A stretch of DNA of 64,000 nt. It comes from Longimicrobiales bacterium. GTDB lineage: Bacteria > Gemmatimonadota > Gemmatimonadetes > Longimicrobiales > Gaopeijiaceae. Where the stretch lies: NCBI GenBank assembly GCA_965238005.1, contig OZ250165.1:3392001-3456000 (forward strand), read 5' to 3'. Position 1 is the stretch's first letter, and every line of letters starts with the position of its first letter. A program made the position numbers and the translations under genes. The notes beneath the pieces were generated by a model, which was not told where the DNA came from, did no database searches, and was given only the letters and a program-made list of their open reading frames with translations. This document shows, in pieces, positions 49,535 through 64,000 of this stretch.

Positions 49535-49686
49535 TCCCCCCCTGGCTCGAGACCTTCGCGGCCGATCTTGTGGACCGTATCGAGCTGGGCCTCGAAGGGG
49601 ACTGAAGCCGGTCCACCGGCCGCTCCCCACTCTCTGCGGTCCCAGAGGCCCATGGCTCAGCCCCTGATCGGGTGGGACCGTTCCCT

Positions 49687-50667
49687 ATGCGCAAGAAACC
49701 CGATCTCGAGCGATCGCTCGCCAACACTAGCCGCCTCCTGAGACAGAGGGGTTACCGGAATAGGACGGTAGACGTGTACGCGCGATGGCTCCGGCGATTC
49801 GCAGAGGCCCATCCCGGTACCGCGGTAGAGGATCTCACCAGAAGGCACGTGGAGGAGTTCTTGAGCGTTCTCACGGACCAGCGGAGGTTAGCGCCGAAGA
49901 GTCGCAATCAAGCCGCGTCCGCGCTGGCGTTTTTCTTTAGAGAGGTTCTGGGCCGCGATGATCTTGCAGGCATGCCTCGGGCCCGAGAGCCGCAACGAAT
50001 ACCGACAGTGTTATCCCACGGGCAGGCCCGACTCGTGCTCAGCCATCTGTCCGGTAAATATCGACTGCTGGGTTCGCTGATGTATGGCACAGGCGCCCGC
50101 CTGACGGAGTGTCATCAACTGCGGGTGAAGGACATCGACTTCGACCTGGTGCAGATCGCCATACGGGACGGGAAGGGTGCCAAGGACCGTTGGGTCATGC
50201 TTCCCGAGCGGCTCGGCCCGGCGCTACGCCGCCAGGTATCTTGGGTAACGGAACTGCACGAGGAGGACAGACGGCAAGGAGGCGGCTGGGCGCAACTGCC
50301 GGGTGCACTGGATCGCAAGGATCCGCGTGGGGGATACGACCTCGGTTGGCAGTTCCTGTTCCCCGCGAGCCGATGGTCACGTGATCCCGCCACTAACAGG
50401 AAAGGTCGGTACCACCTCCATCCGACAGCGATGCAGAAGCGGATGAAGGAGGCCGCGCGAGCATCCGGCATTGCCAAGCCCGTCACGTGTCACATCCTCC
50501 GCAAATCTTTTGCCACCCAGATGTTTCGGGCCGGATACGACGCGCGTTCCGTGCGGAAGCTCATGGGGCACAGGGACATCCGCACGACAATGATCTACGT
50601 GCAAGCCATCACCGACGCCGGACTGGGCATGCGCAGCCCACTTGATCGACCGGAGGACCGGGACTAG
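49687..50667 (+). CDS. intI: Integron integrase
   Basis: NQAASALAFF, YGTGARLTE, RVKDIDF, GKGAKDR, IntI-specific insert (LPGALDRKDP...WQFLFP), HILR, MGH, TTMIY. Confidence 0.93.
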   Translation: MRKKPDLERSLANTSRLLRQRGYRNRTVDVYARWLRRFAEAHPGTAVEDLTRRHVEEFLSVLTDQRRLAPKSRNQAASALAFFFREVLGRDDLAGMPRAREPQRIPTVLSHGQARLVLSHLSGKYRLLGSLMYGTGARLTECHQLRVKDIDFDLVQIAIRDGKGAKDRWVMLPERLGPALRRQVSWVTELHEEDRRQGGGWAQLPGALDRKDPRGGYDLGWQFLFPASRWSRDPATNRKGRYHLHPTAMQKRMKEAARASGIAKPVTCHILRKSFATQMFRAGYDARSVRKLMGHRDIRTTMIYVQAITDAGLGMRSPLDRPEDRD

Positions 50668-51961: not shown

Positions 51962-53639
51962 GAGGCCGTGTGAAAACTCACCATGATTGAACGGGGAGCG
52001 AGCACCTAGGGCGGTGAGCTTGACATTTTGCTGGGAGGGGCGGGAAAGTAGTCGGGTGGGGCGTTGCGGACCTGACAGGGCCGTCTGGAAGCGCCCCGAA
52101 GGGCGAAAAACGGCGCTGAGGACCCCCTCTACGCGAGGGCGTCCAGCAGCTGCGGGACCTCGACGATGTTGAGGACCCGCTTCAGGTTGTAGGCAAGCAC
52201 GGTCAGGCTGAACTCGCCGCGGACCTTCCGCATGCCTTTGAGCAGAAAGTACCCCTGGTCCATCCCGCGCTTCATCGTGCCAAACGGATGCTCCACTAGC
52301 GCTTTGCGCTGCGCGAAGCGCGCCTGCTCCCGCTGGAGCCGTTGCGCCATCTCCTCCATCAGGTGCTCGTCCGCCCACCGTGTGATCTTCCGCCCGTCTT
52401 TGTTGCGCGTACAGCGGGGCCTGAGTGGACACCGCTTACAGGCGGTGGTCCGATAGTTCTTGATGGTGCGCCCGAGCTCGACGGTGGTGGTGCGGTAGGT
52501 GAGCGTCTTCCCCGCAGGACAGCGATAGAGGTCCCGAGTCCGGTCGTAGACGAAGTCATCTTTGGTGAAGAGCCCGCGCTTGGCATTGGCCGAGGTGATC
52601 GGTCGGGGCACCAGCGGCGTGAGGCCCGCCTCCACACACGTCTTGATCTCGGCGCCGTGGTAGTAGCCCCGGTCGGCCACCACCACCGGCGTCACGTTCC
52701 TCAGTACCTCCTGGGCCGCCATGGCCATCGGACTGAGCTGATTCTGGTCGGCGGCGGCGTTGGTGACCGTCTCGGCCACAATCAACTTGTGCTTGGCGTC
52801 GACCGCGGTCTGGACGTTGTAGCAGATCTCGATGCGGCCCCCGCTCATCATCGGCCGACTGTCGGCATCGGTGAGTGAGCGCGCGCTCTCCCCACTCGCC
52901 GCCAGCTCTTGCTGGAGATCCTCGTAGCGCTCCCGGCGCTGCTTAAGCGCCGCAATCTTCTCGCGCAGGGCGTCGGCGCTCGGCCGCTCGGTGCCCGCCT
53001 CCGCCTCGTCCTGGCGCTCCAAGTCTCGCAGATAGCGCGCGATCGTGCGCTCGATGTCCCGTTGTAGCTTGGCCAAGCGGGCCGCGGTGTAGCTCCGATC
53101 CCGGGCATTGACCGCCCGGAACTTGCTCCCATCGATGGCGAGCAACTCGCCGCCAAAGAGGTCCAGCCGCTTGCACAAGAGAATGAACTCGCGGCATACG
53201 CCCTTCAGCGCCTGCGGGTGATCCCGGCGGAAGTCAGCGATGGTCTTGAAGTCGGGTCGCAGTCCTCGCACCAACCACATCAGCTCGATGTTGCGATGCG
53301 TCTCCTGCTCCAGCCGCCGGCTGGAGCGAATGCGGTGCAGGTAGCCGTATAGGTACAATCGCAGGAGATCACCGGGATCGTAGCCCGGGCGGCCCGTATC
53401 TGCAGGCACCGATCGCTGAAAACTGAGCGTGCCGAGATCGAGCTGCGCCACGAAGGCGTCGAGGAAGCGCACTGGGTTGTCAGCGGTGACGTAGTCGTCG
53501 AGGACCTCAGGGAGGAGCACCACTTGGGTGCGATCCCTGCCGGCGATATAGGCCATGGGCGAAGCTCCGAGCAAGGGGAGCACTGGCCAAAACACGGGAC
53601 GTATAATATATGGCACGTCAGGAGTTTTCACACAGGCTC
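51962..53639 (-). mobile_element. IS1182-family element with 4-bp target duplication
   Basis: 18-bp imperfect IRs GAGGCCGTGTGAAAACTC / GAGTTTTCACACAGGCTC; CGAT duplicated at 51958-51961 and 53640-53643. Confidence 0.9.
52129..53556 (-). CDS. IS1182-family transposase
   Basis: GRPGYDP, SSRRLE, PDFKTIADFR, IDGSKF, YNVQ, ADRGY, VEHPFGTMK, AYNLKR. Confidence 0.93.
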   Translation of the reverse strand: MAYIAGRDRTQVVLLPEVLDDYVTADNPVRFLDAFVAQLDLGTLSFQRSVPADTGRPGYDPGDLLRLYLYGYLHRIRSSRRLEQETHRNIELMWLVRGLRPDFKTIADFRRDHPQALKGVCREFILLCKRLDLFGGELLAIDGSKFRAVNARDRSYTAARLAKLQRDIERTIARYLRDLERQDEAEAGTERPSADALREKIAALKQRRERYEDLQQELAASGESARSLTDADSRPMMSGGRIEICYNVQTAVDAKHKLIVAETVTNAAADQNQLSPMAMAAQEVLRNVTPVVVADRGYYHGAEIKTCVEAGLTPLVPRPITSANAKRGLFTKDDFVYDRTRDLYRCPAGKTLTYRTTTVELGRTIKNYRTTACKRCPLRPRCTRNKDGRKITRWADEHLMEEMAQRLQREQARFAQRKALVEHPFGTMKRGMDQGYFLLKGMRKVRGEFSLTVLAYNLKRVLNIVEVPQLLDALA

Positions 53640-53899
53640 CGATCGCTACAGTCGCGGAAGGAGCGAGTGGCTCGCGCGTGCCGCGCTCGGTGACCAGATT
53701 GGCCGCGCAGTAGAATCGCGAGACGTTCTATGAAAGAGAGTGTCAAGAGCGGCTCCGCCCCGGCTGGATGCGAAGCCGTGTTGGGCTTGGCACTCAGCCC
53801 CTTGGTTGGATTAGCCGGATCGTCAGAGAGCGGTGTGCTGGATGAGTCAGTCTTCGTGTGGGCCATGATGATCCTCGCTTGGATGATCGATCCGTCCGG

Positions 53900-54140
53900 A
53901 CTTGATTGAGTGGACCTGGGTCGTACGACGCGAACCATGGTTCTATCTGAGACTCAGCGGCTTGATACTTCTTCGGGTTCTGCGGAAGGGCCTGGAGTTA
54001 GACTCGTGCCTCGGCATGACTGCGAGCCGGGCGTACGTCTCGCGTTGAGACTGCCTCCCGCACCGTCGTCCGGGGATTCGACGTTCCAAGGGATCGAGGG
54101 TCATACGCTGCACCCTACGCTCCGGGACGACGAACCCCCT
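53900..54140 (-). ncRNA. Candidate bridge/seek RNA of element C (boundaries approximate)
   Basis: ACGTCTCGCG (54035-54044) is the reverse complement of the left target flank; GTTAGA (53997-54002) equals the right target flank; a hairpin lies between them; GTTCTAT (53940-53946) equals the element end. Confidence 0.7.
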
Positions 54141-55134
54141 CTATATTTGGGGTCGACTCAGCTGGGTCGGATCAAAGACTTCTCCGGTTTTGAGTAGACG
54201 AAGGGTGAGCGCGGCGAGCTTACGCGCCAGCGTCACACGGGCGAGCTCCTCGCGCATCCCGCGCTCGATCATTCGGTGATAGAAATCTTGTAGAGGGCCC
54301 CGACGTCCGATGGCTACGTTGGCGGCGCCCTTAAAGACATTCTTGAGTACGCGATTGTGGTTGGGGTTCAACCCTCGCGTGAGTGGAGGGCGACGACGAC
54401 GACGAGGGCGCCCATCAAACAACTCGTAGTCGGCGCCTTGGTCTTCTTGCGCTGAGTCCGAAGCACATCGAGCTGAGCGTACAGGGTCTCGGCACGTAGC
54501 CGAGCACCGTGCTCGGGTAGCTGTGCGACCCAGGCGGCGCGCCCCTTCGGCTGGTAGACACCGCCGCCCGTGGTTCGGATGGCCCGCGCACGGAAGAGTG
54601 CCTTGAGCCGCAGCATCACGCGCGTGCCGTCCTCGACGAGGTTGCGATAGGCTCGAGTTAGACACCGCCGCCCGTGGTTCGGATGGCCCGCGCACGGAAG
54701 AGTGCCTTGAGCCGCAGCATCACGCGCGTGCCGTCCTCGACGAGGTTGCGATAGGCTCGAGTCAGCTCCTTGAGATCGCCTCGGCCGTGTGCGCCGTGGT
54801 ATACCGCTCGCAGGCTGCCGCACCGCAACTGCTCCGACAGTTCGTCGGCATCGACCTGGTCCCCCTTGTTGCCCGATCGCTTCTCGCCTCTGCGGTCGCA
54901 CACGATCACCCGGTCTACACGAGGACTCAGTAGGTCGTAGAGCCACTGCGCCTGTGTTCCCTCCTCGAACACCACGTGCACCGACCCAGCCATCGCGCTG
55001 AAGAACTCCCTTATCGATTCGTCGCTCGTCTCCACCACGCTGCGCGCGATCACACGCCCCCCTTCGCTCCGAACCGTCGCCACCGTCATTGCCTGGTGCA
55101 CGTCGAGCCCCACATACTTGGTGTTCCGCTTCAT
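54141..55134 (-). pseudogene. IS110-family transposase pseudogene
   Basis: YVGLDVH, VFEEG, KGDQVDA, C-terminal NRVLKNVF...ARVTLARKLA; broken by a 104-bp duplication and an internal deletion. Confidence 0.85.
54555..54762. repeat. Exact 104-bp tandem duplication
   Basis: 54555-54658 equals 54659-54762 (TAGACACCGCC...GGCTCGAGT). Confidence 0.92.
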
Positions 55135-55329
55135 GAGAGCCGCCCTCTGCTGTGGTCCATGGTTGTTTCGCAACTCCACGGTACCCACAGGGGGCGTGCT
55201 TTCAAGTTGTGTTAGAGCGCACCCCGGAACGCTTTCGGTCCTACGTGCGCGAGAAACCTTGCGATAACGAATGAGATACTTTATTTACCACAGTACTCTG
55301 CATCAGTTTGTTCTCCGCTCCGCGGACTC

Positions 55330-57048: not shown

Positions 57049-58518
57049 ATGCGCGCACCGAACCTGATGGCGATCCGGTCGACCTTGTTCGTCGCTCTCA
57101 CGACAGCTGCCCTCACCACCCTCGCGCTCGCGGCCGCACCGACCCACGCGGGCGCCCAGGCGACCGCCTCGGATTCCGAGGTCCTGGCTCAGATCGACCT
57201 CTTCTCCGCGTGGCTCGAAGGTCAGATCGAGATCCGTGGACTACCGGGCGCCGTCGGCGGCGTCGTTTCGGGTGATGAGCTGGTGTGGGCTGAGGGCTTC
57301 GGACGTGCGGACGTCGATGCGGATCGGCCCATGGAGACCGATATGCGCTTCCGCATGGCTTCGCACAGCAAGCTCTTCACCGCAACTGCTATCATGCAGC
57401 TCCGGGAACAAGGCAAGGTTCGGCTTGATGATCCCGTCACCGATTACCTGCCATGGTTCACCTTCCAGAGCGCCGCTCCTGACGATCCTCCGGTCACCAT
57501 CGAGCACCTGCTAACGCACAGCTCCGGGCTCCCGCGCGAGGCCGGTTCGCACTGGACCGACTTCGACTTCCCAACCCCCGAGGAGGTCCTCGAGTTGATG
57601 CCCGATCGTCAGGCCCCCTTCTCACCCGAAGTCCGCTGGAAGTACTCGAACCTCGCCTACACCATCGCCGGCATGATCGTGGAGGCGATCAGCGGGATGA
57701 GCTGGGCGGACTACCTTAAGCAGAACATATTTGACCCGCTCGGCATGAGCTCGTCTAGCGTCGATCTGCCGGACGCGAAGATGGCTACTGGGTACGGCCG
57801 TCGGATGCCCGACGGCTCTCGGCAGGTCTTTCCGTTCGTCGACGCGCGCGGGATGGCCGCCGCGACGGGACTCACGTCGACGGTCGAAGACATGGCCCGC
57901 TTCGTGTCTGCCCAGTTTCGGACGGGGGCCCGCGGCGGTGACCGGCTTCTGAGGACGGCATCGCTTCGGGAGATGCATCGTGTGCGCATGCTCGAAAACA
58001 CGTGGACGAGCGGCCAAGGCATCGGATTCAGCGTGCGACGGATCGACGGGAAGCTCTATGTCGGCCACGGCGGCGGATACCCGGGCTACACGACGAACAC
58101 GACGATCCAGCTCGACTCGAAGGTTGGTGTAATCGTTCTAACGAACACGAATGACTCGAACCCTTCCCAGATCGCGGAGCAGCTCATGGGCACGGTCGGC
58201 GAAGCTGTCGCCTCCGCGACCACAGTCGAGCCGGAGGTCGTCGCGTGGGATCCCGCGTGGGAGCGCTTCGCCGGTGTGTACCGGAGCCGCGGCGGCGAGA
58301 CGCGAGTCCTCGTCATGAACGAACGGCTGGTGACGATGAATCCGTGGGGCACGAGTATCGGGGACCCGACCCAACTCGAACTGATCGGCGACGGGACGTT
58401 TCGCATGGTGGCGCCCACAGGTGGTGGCCCGGTCGGCGAGATCGTCCGGTTCGTCGAGGAGAACGGCGAGGTCGTACGGATGATTACAGGAGATTCGTAC
58501 TCCGTACGCGTGCGCTAG
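57049..58518 (+). CDS. Secreted serine hydrolase (beta-lactamase / AmpC-like fold)
   Basis: Signal peptide; SHSK (SxxK), LLTHSSGL, YSN, HGGG. Confidence 0.9.
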   Translation: MRAPNLMAIRSTLFVALTTAALTTLALAAAPTHAGAQATASDSEVLAQIDLFSAWLEGQIEIRGLPGAVGGVVSGDELVWAEGFGRADVDADRPMETDMRFRMASHSKLFTATAIMQLREQGKVRLDDPVTDYLPWFTFQSAAPDDPPVTIEHLLTHSSGLPREAGSHWTDFDFPTPEEVLELMPDRQAPFSPEVRWKYSNLAYTIAGMIVEAISGMSWADYLKQNIFDPLGMSSSSVDLPDAKMATGYGRRMPDGSRQVFPFVDARGMAAATGLTSTVEDMARFVSAQFRTGARGGDRLLRTASLREMHRVRMLENTWTSGQGIGFSVRRIDGKLYVGHGGGYPGYTTNTTIQLDSKVGVIVLTNTNDSNPSQIAEQLMGTVGEAVASATTVEPEVVAWDPAWERFAGVYRSRGGETRVLVMNERLVTMNPWGTSIGDPTQLELIGDGTFRMVAPTGGGPVGEIVRFVEENGEVVRMITGDSYSVRVR

Positions 58519-58537: not shown

Positions 58538-58697
58538 TTCGTCTGGCGATCTGGCGATGCGCATGACGTTGAGATCGTCGACTACCACTAGGAGGCATCT
58601 AATGACCACATCGACGATGGCGCCGGTACACCCAGGCGAGGTCTTGCTTGAGGAGTTCCTCGAACCAATGGAGATTAGCCAGTGCCGACTGACGAAG
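58538..58697 (+). pseudogene. higA: Truncated higBA toxin-antitoxin remnant
   Basis: FVWRSGDAHDVEIVDYH* (HigB C-terminus, stop 58591), then GGAGG and MTTSTMAPVHPGEVLLEEFLEPMEISQ (HigA N-terminus from 58602). Confidence 0.8.
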
Positions 58698-58876
58698 GAC
58701 GGGTCCCTCCACGAGCTGACCCGTGTTGCTCACGATGGCGATCACTGAATACGTTGCATGGGCGTCGATTCCTGCGACAAACATGGCTGGCCTCCTTGGG
58801 TTCGGGTGCCGCAGGCCTTGAGTAAGCACAGTGCAACACCCAGCCCGAGTGAGGTCCGCCCTTCGCCTTATAAGAT
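58692..58876 (-). mobile_element. 5' remnant of IS110-type element 'B1' abutting the attC L' box
   Basis: MFVAGIDAHATYSVIAIVS from ATG 58784; end TTATAAGAT joined to the attC right arm. Confidence 0.75.
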
Positions 58877-58923: not shown

Positions 58924-59286
58924 TCACGCAGGCTCGAACAGTTCGATCGGATTGCCATCCAGGTCTTCTGCGAGGCTCTGCCTGCCACCAGGGCCGCTAA
59001 TAATCTCGCTCCGGAACTGGACTCCGGCCCGCGTAAGCCTCTCGACCTCGGCATCCAAATCATCGACGTCGATGAGGATGCGGTTCCAACCGCCCGGCTC
59101 TGTCACACGTCCGTCGGGCATCGAGCGGCGTCCCGAGGACTTGGGGCCGCTGAGCAAGAGGGTGAGGTCTCCTCGAGTGACGATACAGATCGCGGGGGCT
59201 TGTAGCTCGATTACGAAACCGAAGTACTCGGTGTAAAAGGCCGCCGCCGCCCCGGGGTCGTTGACCATGTACCTCACTCTCGCCAT
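58924..59286 (-). CDS. VOC/glyoxalase-family protein carried antisense within a cassette
   Basis: VRYMVND...FYTEYFGF...GGWNRI...DLDGNPIELFEP; cassette bounded by GTTATGC (58891) and ACATAAC (59458-59464). Confidence 0.9.
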   Translation of the reverse strand: MARVRYMVNDPGAAAAFYTEYFGFVIELQAPAICIVTRGDLTLLLSGPKSSGRRSMPDGRVTEPGGWNRILIDVDDLDAEVERLTRAGVQFRSEIISGPGGRQSLAEDLDGNPIELFEPA

Positions 59287-59499
59287 TCCTGCCTCCAACC
59301 ACCCATATGACATTTTGGCACGACCCCCGGCTTTTGGATGAACCATCAACTCAGATGGGATCTCTATCACGCGCACCTAGAAGCCAAGGTCGATCTGCAG
59401 AGGATCAAGCCGCTCCGCAGAAAAGACCTGGCTAGAACTGCGTAGCGCGGGCGCGCCACATAACACTTATCAGGCCCCCGGAATCAAGAGCGCGCATGT

Positions 59500-59734
59500 C
59501 CCCCAGCGTGCCGCGGAGCGGCGCGTAGAAGAGTGAGCATCGGTCGCCGAGTCCTCTGACTTGGTTTCCGTAGGCAGGTGCGAGCGTAGGGAGCCTCTGC
59601 ACCAAACACTTATCGAGGTTCAACCGCCGGGTGCCCTTCGAGACGAGCTCGAAGGCGGCGGAGCAGGAGCCTCGTGTCCGCTCCTGCGACCTAGAAATTC
59701 ATCTGTACCCTCGTGCCGTCCGACTCCATTCAAG
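59500..59734 (-). ncRNA. Candidate bridge/seek RNA of element A (boundaries approximate)
   Basis: Structured, conserved in a second copy at ~63650-63888; internal AACACTTATC (59605-59614) equals the element end; TAGGCA is complementary to the attC R'' flank TGCCTA. Confidence 0.6.
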
Positions 59735-59924
59735 GTGAGCGGGCTCAGGCCGTGTTGTGAGGCCAGGCCAGTTAGCTCCGGGCTCGGGTGAGGGGCAGAG
59801 TCCATGGTGGACCGATGGCGATGTGTGTGAGGAGCGGGAGGAGGCGTCCAATCAAGCGAAGCGGCTGCCAACCATCCGCTGTCGGCTCGAGTTATATGTC
59901 AGGCTCGCCGACCTCCCCTCCCCG

Positions 59925-60971
59925 TCAGGTGCGGGTATAGAAGCGTTCGGTGTCGAATGCCTGCCGGTTCTTGAGCATGAAGTAGGTCGCCCGGCCGATG
60001 CGAGCGGCGAGGATGCTGAGCGCTTTGCCCTTGCCGTGGCGGCGCGTGAGCTTCTTCAGATGAGCCTGGCCGCGGGCGTTGTCCCTGAGGAAGAGCACGG
60101 CGGCCTCGCTGAAGGCCCATTTGAGATGAGCGTTCCCGATCTTGGCTCCTCCGCTGCCGACCCGCTTGCCTGCACTGCGGTGCTCGGGCTTAGCGAGTCG
60201 ACAGTAGGAGCTGAAGCGCTGCACTGTGCTGAAGCGAGCGATGTCGTGGATCTCATAGAGCAGGGTGAGCGCCAGGATGCGGCCGACGCCGGGGATGGTT
60301 CGGAGCCGCTCCAGCGTGTCGAAGTCGTGGACACGGGCTTCCTGTTCGACCGTGTGCTCGAGCGCTCGGATCACCGGGTCGTAGCGATCGGCCAGGGCGA
60401 GGTCCGCCTCGATCGTCCTTTGGGTCATGGGATCATCGAATGCCTCGGCCAGGCCCTGGCGGTTCTTCTTGTACAGGAGCTGACCGGAGGGTCGAGGCAG
60501 GTTGTACTGATGGAAGGTGTTACGGATGTGGGCGAGCAGTTCGCCTCGCTTGCGCACGAAGTAGAGTCGGCGCCGGAGCACGTCGCGTGTGGCGCGCATC
60601 CCAGGTGGATAGACGTAGGCGACGGGAAAGGCGCCGCCTCGCAGCAGGACCGCCGTCTTGTGGGAGTCGATCTTGTCGTTCTTGGCCTTGGCCCCATGAA
60701 TCGCCTTCATGTAGAGCGCATGGCCGAGCACGAAGTGGATCTGCTCGCGAGCACACAGATCGGCCAGCCAGTACCAGCAGAAGATGCACTCGCTGCCCAC
60801 GACGAGGTCTGAACGGTAGGGCTCGAGGGCGCGAAGGAGTGCCTCGCGCTCACAGCGTAGCCTCTTGTGCAGGCGTATCTTGCCCTGGCAGTCCAGGACG
60901 CAGAGGTAGAGTGTGCGAGCATGAAGGTCGATGCCACAGTAGTATCGATGCTGGCCTGTGTAGAAGCGCAT
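59925..60971 (-). CDS. IS110-family DEDD transposase (recombinase), intact
   Basis: GIDLH, GSEC, KNDKIDS, IPGVG, HRSAG (catalytic Ser), GNAHLKWAF. Confidence 0.93.
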   Translation of the reverse strand: MRFYTGQHRYYCGIDLHARTLYLCVLDCQGKIRLHKRLRCEREALLRALEPYRSDLVVGSECIFCWYWLADLCAREQIHFVLGHALYMKAIHGAKAKNDKIDSHKTAVLLRGGAFPVAYVYPPGMRATRDVLRRRLYFVRKRGELLAHIRNTFHQYNLPRPSGQLLYKKNRQGLAEAFDDPMTQRTIEADLALADRYDPVIRALEHTVEQEARVHDFDTLERLRTIPGVGRILALTLLYEIHDIARFSTVQRFSSYCRLAKPEHRSAGKRVGSGGAKIGNAHLKWAFSEAAVLFLRDNARGQAHLKKLTRRHGKGKALSILAARIGRATYFMLKNRQAFDTERFYTRT

Positions 60972-61452
60972 GGTTCCCCTCCTGGGTTGGATGAATCGAG
61001 TTTGGCGCTCTGATTCTTCCGCCCTCTCTTCGAGAGGTCCAGGAGGGGGCCTGCATGAGCAGGCTTGCTACTGGCGCGTGCGACATCAGGCTCGCGCGCT
61101 TCGCTTGCAGTCGCCATCTTGGTCGCCGGCCGAACCCCGAATAGGTGCTCGAGTCCCTGAGGACTGCACGAGCGAGCTTGCGTGCAGTGGCGATGCGAGC
61201 GATGCGCCAATCGAGCCGATCCTTGAGCCGGTCGTAGTACTCGCTGAGCCAGCTTTCGGGAGATCGGCCGTGATGGATGACGACGGTCTGGACGAAGGCG
61301 TTTCGGAGCTAGCGATTGGCACCGGCCGGGATGGGCCCGTAGCGGACCGTCATCCCGGAACGAGCAGCACTGCGTCGATCGCATCGTTCTTGTAGTTGGC
61401 TTCGGCGATCGCGGCTTCTGAACAAGCGCTCCGTCTTTGCTCACCACCGCAA

Positions 61453-62909
61453 GAAGCTGTCCCAACCGTAGTTGAAGGTTCCTGATAGGGGAGAAAGAAA
61501 AGTGGTGGCTCCGGGGGTCCCGGGCCGATAGGCTCGGGTAGGCAAAAACCCCAACACGGAGCCACCACGATGAAGAGAACGTACGAGGTAAGGGATCGGG
61601 CGGACAAGCGCGCGATCAGGGAGTTCCTGAAGCGGGAGGGGCAGTTTCTGCTTCCGATGCTTGAGCTCGTGGAGCAGACGGAGGTCGCGATCGACGAAGT
61701 CATCCAGGTGATGGGACGAGCGACGATCGAAGCGGTGCTGGAGATGAGCGCCGAGGGTGTGGCAGGCGTGAAGCAGGCAGGTCGGTCACGAGCGGAAGAC
61801 GACACGGTGTGGTATGGCCGGCAGGGTGGTGTGGTTTACCTGTCGGACCGGAAGGTGCGTGTGGAGCGGCCACGGCTCAGGCGCCGGGGCGCCGGGGAGG
61901 GTGGCGAGGTCGAGGTGCCGGCGTACGCAGCGATGCGGAGACCGGGCGCCGTGGCGGATCGGATGCTCGAGGTCCTGATGGCGGGGGTGAGCACGCGGAA
62001 GTACGGCCGTGTGATCGGTGAGATGGCCGACACGGTCGGGGTGAGCAAGTCGGCGGTGAGCCGTGAGACGGTCGAGGCCTCGGAGCGCGTGCTGAAGGAG
62101 CTGATGGAGCGCCGGCTGGATGCGTGGGACCTCCTGGTGATCTACCTGGACGGGATCCAGATGGGCTCGCACCACGTGCTTGCTGCGGTAGGCGTGGACT
62201 CAGACGGAAAGAAGCACGTGCTGGGCGTGAGGGAAGGAGCGAGTGAGAACGCCGAGGTGACCAGCGCGCTCCTAGAGGATCTGGTCGAGCGCGGCCTGGA
62301 CCCGGGCAGGCGGCGGCTGTTCGTGATCGATGGCTCGAAAGCGCTCAGGAAGGCGATCGAGAAGGTGTTCGGCCAACGTCACCCCATCCAGCGCTGCCGC
62401 AACCACAAGCTCCGCAACGTGCTGGGTCATCTGCCGAAGGATCAGCATCCTCAGGTGAAGGCGGCGTTCCGGGCGGCGATGAAGCTGGACGCGAAGCAGG
62501 GCGAGCAGAAGCTCGAGCAGCTCGCCCGATGGCTCGAGCGCGACCACCCCTCGGCCTCGGCCAGCCTACGCGAAGGCCTCAGCGAGATGTTCACGATCAA
62601 CCGGCTCGGCCTCCCGCCGCGGCTGAGGAAGTGCCTGGGCTCGACCAACCTGATCGACAGCACCCACTCGGGCGTAAGACAGAAGACCCGCAGGGTGACC
62701 AACTGGAAGAACGGAGCGATGGCCTTGCGCTGGGCTGCGGCCTCGTTCGTGGAGACCGAGAAGACCTACCGGAGGATCATCGGCTACGACCAGCTCTGGA
62801 TGCTCAGGGCCCACCTCGACGACCATGAACCGGTGGCCGAAATGAGAAAGGCAGGCTAACAAGGAGACTCTCCGGAGCCACCACCTTCAACTGTCAGCGG
62901 GACACCATC
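61453..62909 (+). mobile_element. IS256-family element with 8-bp target duplication
   Basis: IRs GAAGCTGTCCC...GTTGAAGGT / ACCTTCAAC...GGGACACCATC; CACCGCAA at 61445-61452 and 62910-62917. Confidence 0.92.
61570..62859 (+). CDS. IS256-family (mutator-type) transposase
   Basis: GVSTRK, SKSAVSR, IYLDG, VIDGSKAL, QRCRNH, STNLID. Confidence 0.95.
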   Translation: MKRTYEVRDRADKRAIREFLKREGQFLLPMLELVEQTEVAIDEVIQVMGRATIEAVLEMSAEGVAGVKQAGRSRAEDDTVWYGRQGGVVYLSDRKVRVERPRLRRRGAGEGGEVEVPAYAAMRRPGAVADRMLEVLMAGVSTRKYGRVIGEMADTVGVSKSAVSRETVEASERVLKELMERRLDAWDLLVIYLDGIQMGSHHVLAAVGVDSDGKKHVLGVREGASENAEVTSALLEDLVERGLDPGRRRLFVIDGSKALRKAIEKVFGQRHPIQRCRNHKLRNVLGHLPKDQHPQVKAAFRAAMKLDAKQGEQKLEQLARWLERDHPSASASLREGLSEMFTINRLGLPPRLRKCLGSTNLIDSTHSGVRQKTRRVTNWKNGAMALRWAAASFVETEKTYRRIIGYDQLWMLRAHLDDHEPVAEMRKAG

Positions 62910-63115
62910 CACCGCAACGACCAGATACGTTGTGTGCGCATCGATTCCTGCGACATACATGATGGCCTCCTGGTGGTTGGCAGCCGCAGGTTCTTGGAGA
63001 AGTACCAGCGTAGTGCGCCGGCCATTGGGAGGCCATCCGCTTTATAAGGTCAGCAGAAGCGCAAAGTCGTTAGGCATCCGAGAACCGAGAGGGGCAGTGA
63101 ACGCATTCCATCTTC

Positions 63116-63601
63116 TTGGTCTGTTTAGCGGTCGTGGTAGCTGCGATCGGTTGGAAAGTCGCCGGTCTGCTCGGAGTCGTGCTCGGCGTCCCGGCCGGAA
63201 TCCTCGTGGGAGTCTATGGTCTGATAGGGACGTTCCTGGCCTTGGCGTGGCTCGAGACTCGCCGCGACCAGCTAGCTCTGCGCAGGTCATTCGGCCCGTA
63301 TTGGCGGGCCGAATACCGCGCAGATTGGGAGGAACTCAAGGCGTCGCTTCGCCCCGGCGCCGTTGTGAATGGAGTTGTGGTCAGAGTGCGATATCACGGC
63401 GCCTTCCTTAATCTTGGGAAAGGATTTCCGGGGCTTATCCAGGCCTACCAAATCGTGCATGACGGCTCGGAGCTGCCGTCCGTTGGTGACAACGTTCGTG
63501 CATGGGTTAAGGAGTATGATGAGGACTGTCGGACGGTAGTGCTCACGATGAACGAAGGGTCGCTCTCAGGACTCGGTGACCTCCGACCCCCGGATGCCTA
63601 A
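63116..63601 (+). CDS. Cassette: membrane-anchored S1 (OB-fold) domain protein
   Basis: Two TM segments then WEELK...GAVVNGVV...HGAFLNLG...GLI...VGDNVRAWV...VVLTM; stop TAA lies inside R''; cassette ends TTAGGCATCCG / CGGATGCCTAA are complementary. True start may be GTG 63097 with a 1-nt shift. Confidence 0.75.
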   Translation: MVCLAVVVAAIGWKVAGLLGVVLGVPAGILVGVYGLIGTFLALAWLETRRDQLALRRSFGPYWRAEYRADWEELKASLRPGAVVNGVVVRVRYHGAFLNLGKGFPGLIQAYQIVHDGSELPSVGDNVRAWVKEYDEDCRTVVLTMNEGSLSGLGDLRPPDA

Positions 63602-64000
63602 ACACTTATCAGGCCCCCGGAGTCAAGAGCACGCACGTCCCCCCCCTCCCCCCGACGCGTCGCGGAGCGGCGCGCTAGGCGAAATAAGCATCGGTCGCCG
63701 AGTCCTCTGACCTGGTTTCAGTAGGCAGGTGCGAGCGTAGGGAGCCTCTGCACCAAACACTTATCGAGGTTCAACCGCCGGGTGCCCTACGAGGCGAGCT
63801 CGAAGGCGGCGGAGCGAGAAGTCTTCGTTTCGATTCCTCGCGACCTAGAAATTCATCTGTACCCTCGTGCCGTCCGACTCCATTCAAGACGTAGGTTAGG
63901 GAAGGCGCCGCCTCGCAGCAGCACGGCCGTCTTGTGCGAGTCGATCTCGTCGTTCTTGGCCTTGGCCCCGTGGATCGCCTTCTGCCCTGCGAGTCCAGGA
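63601..64000 (-). mobile_element. Second, internally deleted copy of element A at the next attC R''; runs off the right edge
   Basis: 63601-63888 is homologous to 59462-59734, then jumps to sequence homologous to transposase positions ~60624-60708 and ~60881-60898. Confidence 0.85.

Follow-up and report, generated by a model that had tools for sequence, protein, structure and literature searches.

A probable bridge-RNA recombinase element in a Longimicrobiales integron array, with a second target-loop-like module in its guide RNA

The two-loop plan of IS621 is the basis on which bridge recombinases are now being developed as genome-editing tools, and the balance between excision and insertion is still an open question. 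Among the described systems, IS621 combines a DEDD and serine site, a target loop 5' of the donor loop, a 2-nt core, handshake dinucleotides and a junction promoter (PMC11208160, PMC11208158, PMC13626964), and the seekRNA elements ISKpn4, ISPst6 and ISPa25 have a non-coding region 3' of the gene, subterminal inverted repeats and a target on the R'' side of attC (PMC11187229). We found like features in element A, an IS110-family insertion sequence on the reverse strand of a 64,000-nt stretch of a Longimicrobiales genome (the window; genome positions 3392001-3456000), where it interrupts a chromosomal integron array. We are fairly confident that A is an element of the ISGsu4/ISShfr7 clade, that it encodes a bridge-RNA recombinase and that its RNA lies 3' of the gene, as in the IS1111-type layout, with a target loop (module 1), a donor loop and a further module (module 2) that is an old duplicate of the target loop. 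The kind of system is known; what is new is the layout of the RNA and the landing point.

A was compared with 79 genome loci (from the best 80 of 539) and 80 metagenome loci (the best 80 of 578). Six duplicate, partial or distant loci were set aside, and with L162 and A itself added the set came to 161 loci, which fell into 92 clusters at 85% nucleotide identity. Covariation was tested with one locus per cluster and 10,000 permutations, and tree-independent pairs were scored as same/opposite counts (medians over draws; FastTree on 158 rows). Segments were excised by anchored patterns, and loci without a segment left that test, hence the varying denominators.

The recombinase of A (59925..60971, reverse strand, 348 amino acids) carries both Pfam domains, DEDD_Tnp_IS110 (RuvC-like) and Transposase_20 (with the catalytic serine), as expected of an IS110-family bridge recombinase, and scores 184.6 bits against NF033542 (cut-off 140). 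D15, E61, D99, D102 and S266 are all intact, as the initial annotation had said, and are conserved in 79/79, 79/79, 78/79, 79/79 and 79/79 full-length cluster representatives, A included. S266 aligns with S241 of IS621, a residue whose role is given in PMC11208158. The closest relatives among the matches listed are 93-96% identical and come from Longimicrobiales. Compared by eye, the ISGsu4 and ISMahy12 proteins (PMC11187229 supplement) are collinear with that of A and share long motifs with it; ISGsu4, ISGsu5, ISMahy12, ISShfr7 and ISShwo5 stand in one row of Supplementary Table 1 of PMC11208160. The literature searched yielded no description of the RNA or target of any of these five, ISGsu4 being listed in unrelated work and the other four names giving no match.

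Module 1 (59831..59923, reverse strand), a free-standing target-binding loop that starts directly 3' of the transposase (tnp) stop codon, covaries with the insertion site. It is a hairpin with a large internal loop (fold z -2.71), and 7 of its 18 consensus pairs were changed on both sides among 17 sequences. Its bottom-strand guide, together with the core (59853-59860), matched positions -5 to -1 of the left target (LT) in 36, 42, 43, 36 and 58 of 66 clusters, against 22.2, 23.9, 20.4, 18.8 and 46.1 expected (P ≤ 3e-4), with no match at -6 or -7. Its top-strand guide (59891-59897) was complementary to positions +3 to +6 of the right target (RT) in 32, 39, 29 and 30 of 51 clusters, against 27.4, 27.1, 20.1 and 24.3 expected (P from 1e-4 to 0.008). 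The tree-independent pairs went the same way (LT-1 T, 7/0; LT-3 G, 11/1; LT-4 C, 13/1; RT+4 G, 5/0). A has the guide ATAAC and the flank GTTAT; the relatives L001-L009 have the guide CTAAC and, mostly, the flank GTTAG. Judged by this covariation, module 1 reads attC R'' on both strands around a TG core, so that a non-coding RNA loop complementary to both target strands, as in IS110-family bridge recombinases, is predicted here. The initial annotation had proposed a recombinase of IS110 type whose RNA guide is directed at attC R''; this is supported, by a segment other than the one it had named.

The donor-binding loop (59597..59704, reverse strand) consists of a right donor guide (59694-59704), a variable inner stem, a left donor guide (59607-59614), a handshake-like TT (59605-59606) and a closing strand (59597-59602). 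The internal copy of the element terminus at 59605-59614 is this left donor guide plus two letters matching the start of the right target, and its earlier assignment as a donor guide holds: the variable position tracked the right end of the element in 49 of 55 clusters (26.3 expected by permutation), and the tree-independent pairs for the letter A in the left donor guide were 8/0. The right donor guide was complementary to the left end at +6, +7 and +8 in 38, 43 and 45 of 59 clusters, against 17.4, 34.5 and 39.1 expected. The loop is thus complementary to both donor ends, strongly through the left guide and moderately through the right. An unguided column scan of 46 aligned non-coding regions (31,172 tests, many of whose top matches reflect shared G+C or descent) recovered the bottom-strand guide of module 1 and both donor guides. 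GTCA at about 59558, another candidate for the right donor guide, was rejected, having no covariation and 0/51 matches at one position.

In both loops the top-strand guide precedes the bottom-strand guide, and the dinucleotide after each bottom-strand guide (AT at 59851-59852 in module 1) is identical to the letters with which the opposite partner begins, as expected of handshake guides, although these letters were also pattern anchors. The order along the RNA is target loop (module 1), module 2, donor loop. The initial annotation had put the donor loop before the target loop; covariation places the target loop 5', and the contrast in loop order that had been drawn with element C, a second IS110 element of the window, falls because the order in A is target-first.

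Module 2 (59708..59800, reverse strand; top-strand guide 59771-59777, bottom-strand guide 59731-59739) lies between module 1 and the donor loop and looks like module 1, with the same short motifs on both strands; its function as a target loop is conjectural. A pattern found it in 86 of the 102 loci whose sequence extends to the donor loop; inspection by eye located it in all 15 of those shown from the other 16 and also in a copy on a Vibrio campbellii plasmid. The named loci that have both modules bear 13 phylum labels. A short motif taken from module 1, the second one tried, picked module 2 in 51 of 51 clusters (44 beat 20 shuffles). Module 2 and the donor loop were predicted to share one multiloop, with 98.4% of cells paired and 12 double changes against 2.5 in shuffles (25 sequences); multiloop donor guides have been noted for IS1111 orthologues (PMC11208160, PMC11208158 and PMC13626964). 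Instead of exactly two binding loops as in IS621, therefore, a target-loop-like third module was seen in all relatives checked. No description of tandem target loops or of a three-loop bridge RNA was found in the literature searched, figures and some supplements of which lay outside the scope, so a drawn model could exist; a phrase search of a 2026 review likewise gave none, and section 2.4 of bioRxiv 10.64898/2026.10.21.760802 treats diverse bridge RNA structures and names no three-loop form, its figures and supplements likewise lying outside the scope.

The sites themselves place the cut at TAA^C of the attC R'' box, that is, G^TT of R''. The outer part of the box broken by A remains at 59457..59463 (forward strand), as judged from the sequence and from the junctions of relatives, and the remainder of the attC, with a degenerate R' end, at 61060..61151 (forward strand; nhmmer attC profile, E 1.3e-15). 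The rebuilt attC of A has no AAC:GTT pairing; of the 56 rebuilt empty sites of relatives, 21 have an upstream AAC that pairs with the G at the cut, as do 7 of 47 controls. Element A and its two partial copies, B and D, each adjoin attC profile matches. Together with the relatives' sites and an integron integrase in the window, this makes insertion in attC a feature shared with the IS1111-attC group. No earlier description of the TAA^C landing point was found in the literature searched, two older attC papers lying outside that scope; it adds a second attC landing point for RNA-guided parasites of integrons.

Compared with the known systems, A shares with the IS1111 seekRNAs the position of the top-strand match (59891-59897) 5' of the bottom-strand match (59853-59860) (PMC11187229). 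It also has the long non-coding region 3' of tnp that marks the group (432-663 nt among the 84 loci whose right end could be parsed; the left end is about 90 nt). However, ISKpn4, ISPst6 and ISPa25 insert 7 nt inward of GTT (PMC13604230 Table 1), whereas the A clade inserts at G^TT of R'', and a single target-matching region is reported for them (PMC11187229), whereas A has the second, target-loop-like module. Nor does A have the 11-13 bp inverted repeats with 7 bp left and 3 bp right extensions of the IS1111 group (PMC11187229): its perfect inverted repeat is 9 bp, lying 9 nt from the left core and 5 nt from the right core, and an imperfect 14-15 bp alignment of the repeats gives other extensions. 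Unlike IS621, A has its RNA in the right end, a mirrored strand order within both loops, and a region of about 460 nt with three loop modules, not two. CazIS110-1 (bioRxiv 10.1101/2025.10.25.684509) resembles A in having a stand-alone target loop beside a full bridge RNA, but its RNA of the target-binding loop (TBL) only is a truncated form of its one RNA, whereas A encodes a separate tandem target loop whose guide has diverged from the second.

In this family the left end, on the element strand, runs from the TG core through ATA to the inverted repeat, and the right end from the inverted repeat through the left donor to the TG core. The right end of A (59464..59487, reverse strand) comprises a -35 hexamer (59482-59487), the inverted repeat (59471-59479), the left donor and the core TG (59464-59465). 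A was initially called intact and complete, but its left end (60972..61061, reverse strand; inverted repeat 61045-61053) lacks three conserved terminal bases, the ATA between core and inverted repeat, at 61059/61060. ATA is carried by 10 of 11 relatives at ≥92% amino acid identity (the eleventh, L008, has foreign sequence there) and is retained in B and D. The gap in A is backed by a 450-nt contig of run X1 that agrees with 61030-61479 throughout and reaches 31 letters beyond the junction on its shorter side; X1 may be the source sample, yet the contig is another assembly. The claim is built on close relatives because a check that used the inverted repeat as its anchor was misplaced in 13 flanks, and a single copy does not tell exactly which bases went missing around the junction.

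It is these three bases that the right donor guide reads, and they belong to the predicted junction -10; therefore A is probably not a usable donor, or a poor one at best. The -35 of the predicted junction promoter reads TTG[AC][CT], at the spacing that suits such a promoter, in 48 of 51 clusters and TTGACA in 28. The right end of L005 contains a tandem duplication of about 143 bp, bounded by the left donor guide and by the right terminus identical to it, so the guide's copy of the element end serves as a direct repeat, which was seen in G419:C52 too. Several family copies of one genome (L002, L008 and L011) are broken by one other insertion sequence, which sits variously in the RNA region, at the left end and within tnp.

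Copy B extends from 63603 to window-equivalent 64167 (genome 3456167), so that its last 167 bp lie outside the window; three blocks of it match A, at 87.5%, 88.8% and 92.8% identity. Its right 287 bp (63603..63888, reverse strand; 87.5% identity), the roughly 280 bp of non-coding end noted earlier, hold the right end, the donor loop (guides 63848-63858 and 63758-63765) and only the 3' strand of module 2, with no module 1. The transposase scraps (63887..64000, reverse strand) lie between two internal deletions, which correspond to A 59735-60610 and A 60709-60880, and cover residues 1-33 and about 88-120. B was thought to have kept only the RNA end; in fact its left end is complete and it is the target loop that was lost. 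Nor does it occupy the next attC after A: an IS256 element and half an attC with a relic of another IS110 lie between them. Copy D (genome 3459358-3459640) lies in a different attC R''; its deletions are not those of B, and its right end is broken, the inverted repeat and core there being lost. Other remnants of the A family (genome 3672785-3673035, 2136376-2136465, 366224-366322 and 17891-17925) comprise tnp pieces, part of module 2 and the right end of a related element, and short internal deletions are common among this genome's A-family copies. B is a deletion relic, with both ends and the donor guides and with no target loop or enzyme. Both local copies, A and B, are damaged, and a relative is the better test case: cloning 59462-61060 would assay a donor whose left end is damaged, and a mutation of TAGGCA, the proposed target guide, would hit the wrong segment.

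By analogy with work on IS621 and IS1111, an element of this kind would excise as a circle whose joined ends form a promoter, with the -35 in the right end and the -10 across the core and left end, and the junction transcript would supply both enzyme and RNA. A recombinase tetramer would then bridge donor and target, and the handshake-like dinucleotides after each bottom-strand guide would favour insertion. A itself, with enzyme and RNA present and the left end damaged, could act at most in trans here. Module 2 would be an old duplicate target loop folded with the donor loop and most likely still bound by a recombinase dimer as a relaxed guide, through its core-proximal letters only; specificity would be set by the free-standing module 1, and module 2 would act together with the donor loop, in a way reminiscent of the TBL-only RNA that drives direct transfer in CazIS110-1 (bioRxiv 10.1101/2025.10.25.684509). 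One pairing might serve excision from any attC flank and the other the choice of a new attC site. It is a tentative suggestion that the whole ISGsu4 clade (Gemmatimonadota, Desulfobacterota, Nitrospirota, Vibrio and others) has such a three-loop guide RNA, with labour divided between a high-specificity free target loop and a relaxed one locked to the donor loop. If true, this would be a genetically encoded version of the cooperation between TBL-only RNA and bridge RNA. Two target loops were non-productive for IS621 excision (PMC13626964 Discussion), and a widespread natural clade with two in tandem offers a direct test of what an extra loop does.

Module 2 is either a relaxed second guide or a scaffold. 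It may well have ceased to guide, being a duplicated target loop kept to close the donor multiloop, so that module 1 and the donor loop make up an ordinary, split two-loop bridge RNA; we regard this as a serious possibility without favouring it. Insertion sites follow module 1, which fits better than module 2 at 42 of 52 and worse at 4, and the stems of module 2 are more conserved than its guides. Several results weigh against a guiding module 2 or against the wider model of A. The top-strand side of module 2 had no covariation, and its signal was weak, at LT-2 and LT-3 (P = 0.005 and 0.03). Module 2 gave no rescue of module-1 mismatches (21/77 against 20.7), which leaves a role as a guide that widens the target range to sites missed by module 1 unsupported. 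A longer 20+12-nt motif from module 1 picked module 2 in 42 of 51 clusters, only 21 beating 20 shuffles, and a covariance model of module 1 from 17 close sequences did not detect module 2, although it also missed most distant copies of module 1. Two of the five helices of the module-2/donor domain never vary, and the 469-nt region taken as one piece does not fold better than its shuffles do (z -0.10). The right donor guide is mismatched at +2 in 59 of 59, and its tree-independent support is small and confined to +6 (1/0, 2/0, 2/0, 3/0; none at +7 or +8). The pattern anchors AAC, TG, AT and TT make those letters conserved by construction, and 35 of the 56 rebuilt sites failed a strict attC test. 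Three observations nevertheless speak for a relaxed guide over a scaffold: module 2 keeps its core-proximal letters as well as module 1 does (TAAC 93/103 against 125/132; TTG 87/89 against 125/137; last letters fixed by the pattern), its tree-independent pairs go with the target at LT-2 (6/1, 3/0) and LT-3 (6/1, 5/0), and in L060 both modules changed together with the flank.

The initial annotation had read the locus as a whole differently, with the donor loop first, a target guide TAGGCA within the last 280 bp, a complete A, and B as a non-autonomous derivative with a working guide RNA. The four motifs that it quoted all lie where it placed them, the left donor guide is real and TGCCTA is complementary to the flank of B, but we consider this reading very improbable. 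The TGCCTA/TAGGCA segment (59571..59576 in A, reverse strand) is a variable stretch 3' of the donor loop, and its letters matched the flanks in 8, 9, 17, 14 and 14 of 48 clusters, against 13.8, 11.2, 13.2, 12.7 and 15.3 expected, with no direction in tree-independent pairs. It was tried in two registers and rejected; the shifted register gave P = 0.006 at one of 13 positions tested. A and L009 carry the same 6-mer despite differing flanks, close relatives with the same flank carry other letters, and the probability of a chance match is 0.10 for a fixed 6-mer in a 290-nt RNA and 0.79 for any junction-near 6-mer. The lost left-end bases of A also count against completeness. As to B, the part of the earlier claim that stands is that it has both ends and no enzyme; that it is a mobile derivative is unproven. 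B could be an active passenger resembling a miniature inverted-repeat transposable element, mobilised in trans by the enzyme and RNA of A as ssr9 is by ISPpu9, for it has both ends, core, inverted repeats and junction promoter parts, A's enzyme and full RNA lie 2.5 kb away, and IS621 RNA acts in trans (PMC11208160). This seems unlikely to us: no second copy of its deleted form was found in the genome, a search of 150 other family genomes gave no match across its deletion junction, D represents a different deletion, and B has an extra T at its right junction (shared by an X1 contig) and flanks that fit module 1 of A poorly.

The array around A and B is marked by attC-like sites from 53632 to beyond the end of the window, detected with an nhmmer profile seeded on five local sites, an earlier regular expression having given no match. 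Its integron integrase (49672..50667, forward strand; TIGR02249 326.8 bits, cut-off 265) is on the same strand as the attC sites. An Rfam search of the whole window gave 0 matches; genome-wide there were 48 matches to tyrosine recombinases, and some 20 attC-like sites lay dispersed beyond the array. Near A, on the opposite strand, are a serine-hydrolase/beta-lactamase-family gene (57049-58518) and a glyoxalase-family gene (58924-59376), and the attC broken by B belongs to an S1-domain cassette gene (63116..63601, forward strand). The array is also broken by an IS1182 transposase (52129-53631) and by the IS256-family transposase between A and B, which is unrelated to them (61570..62859, forward strand; NF033543 above cut-off).

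Three IS110 lineages hit attC at three positions within this one array. Element C (53726-55217) belongs to a lineage different from that of A, sits at the R' GTT of an attC and has a tandem duplication within tnp near 54563-54756. The third lineage is represented by two relics (58690-58870 and 62915-63060, reverse strand) in the right arms of attC sites, each consisting of a left end and first codons with a GIDAH motif; related ends occur at genome 47260-47441 and in five other places.

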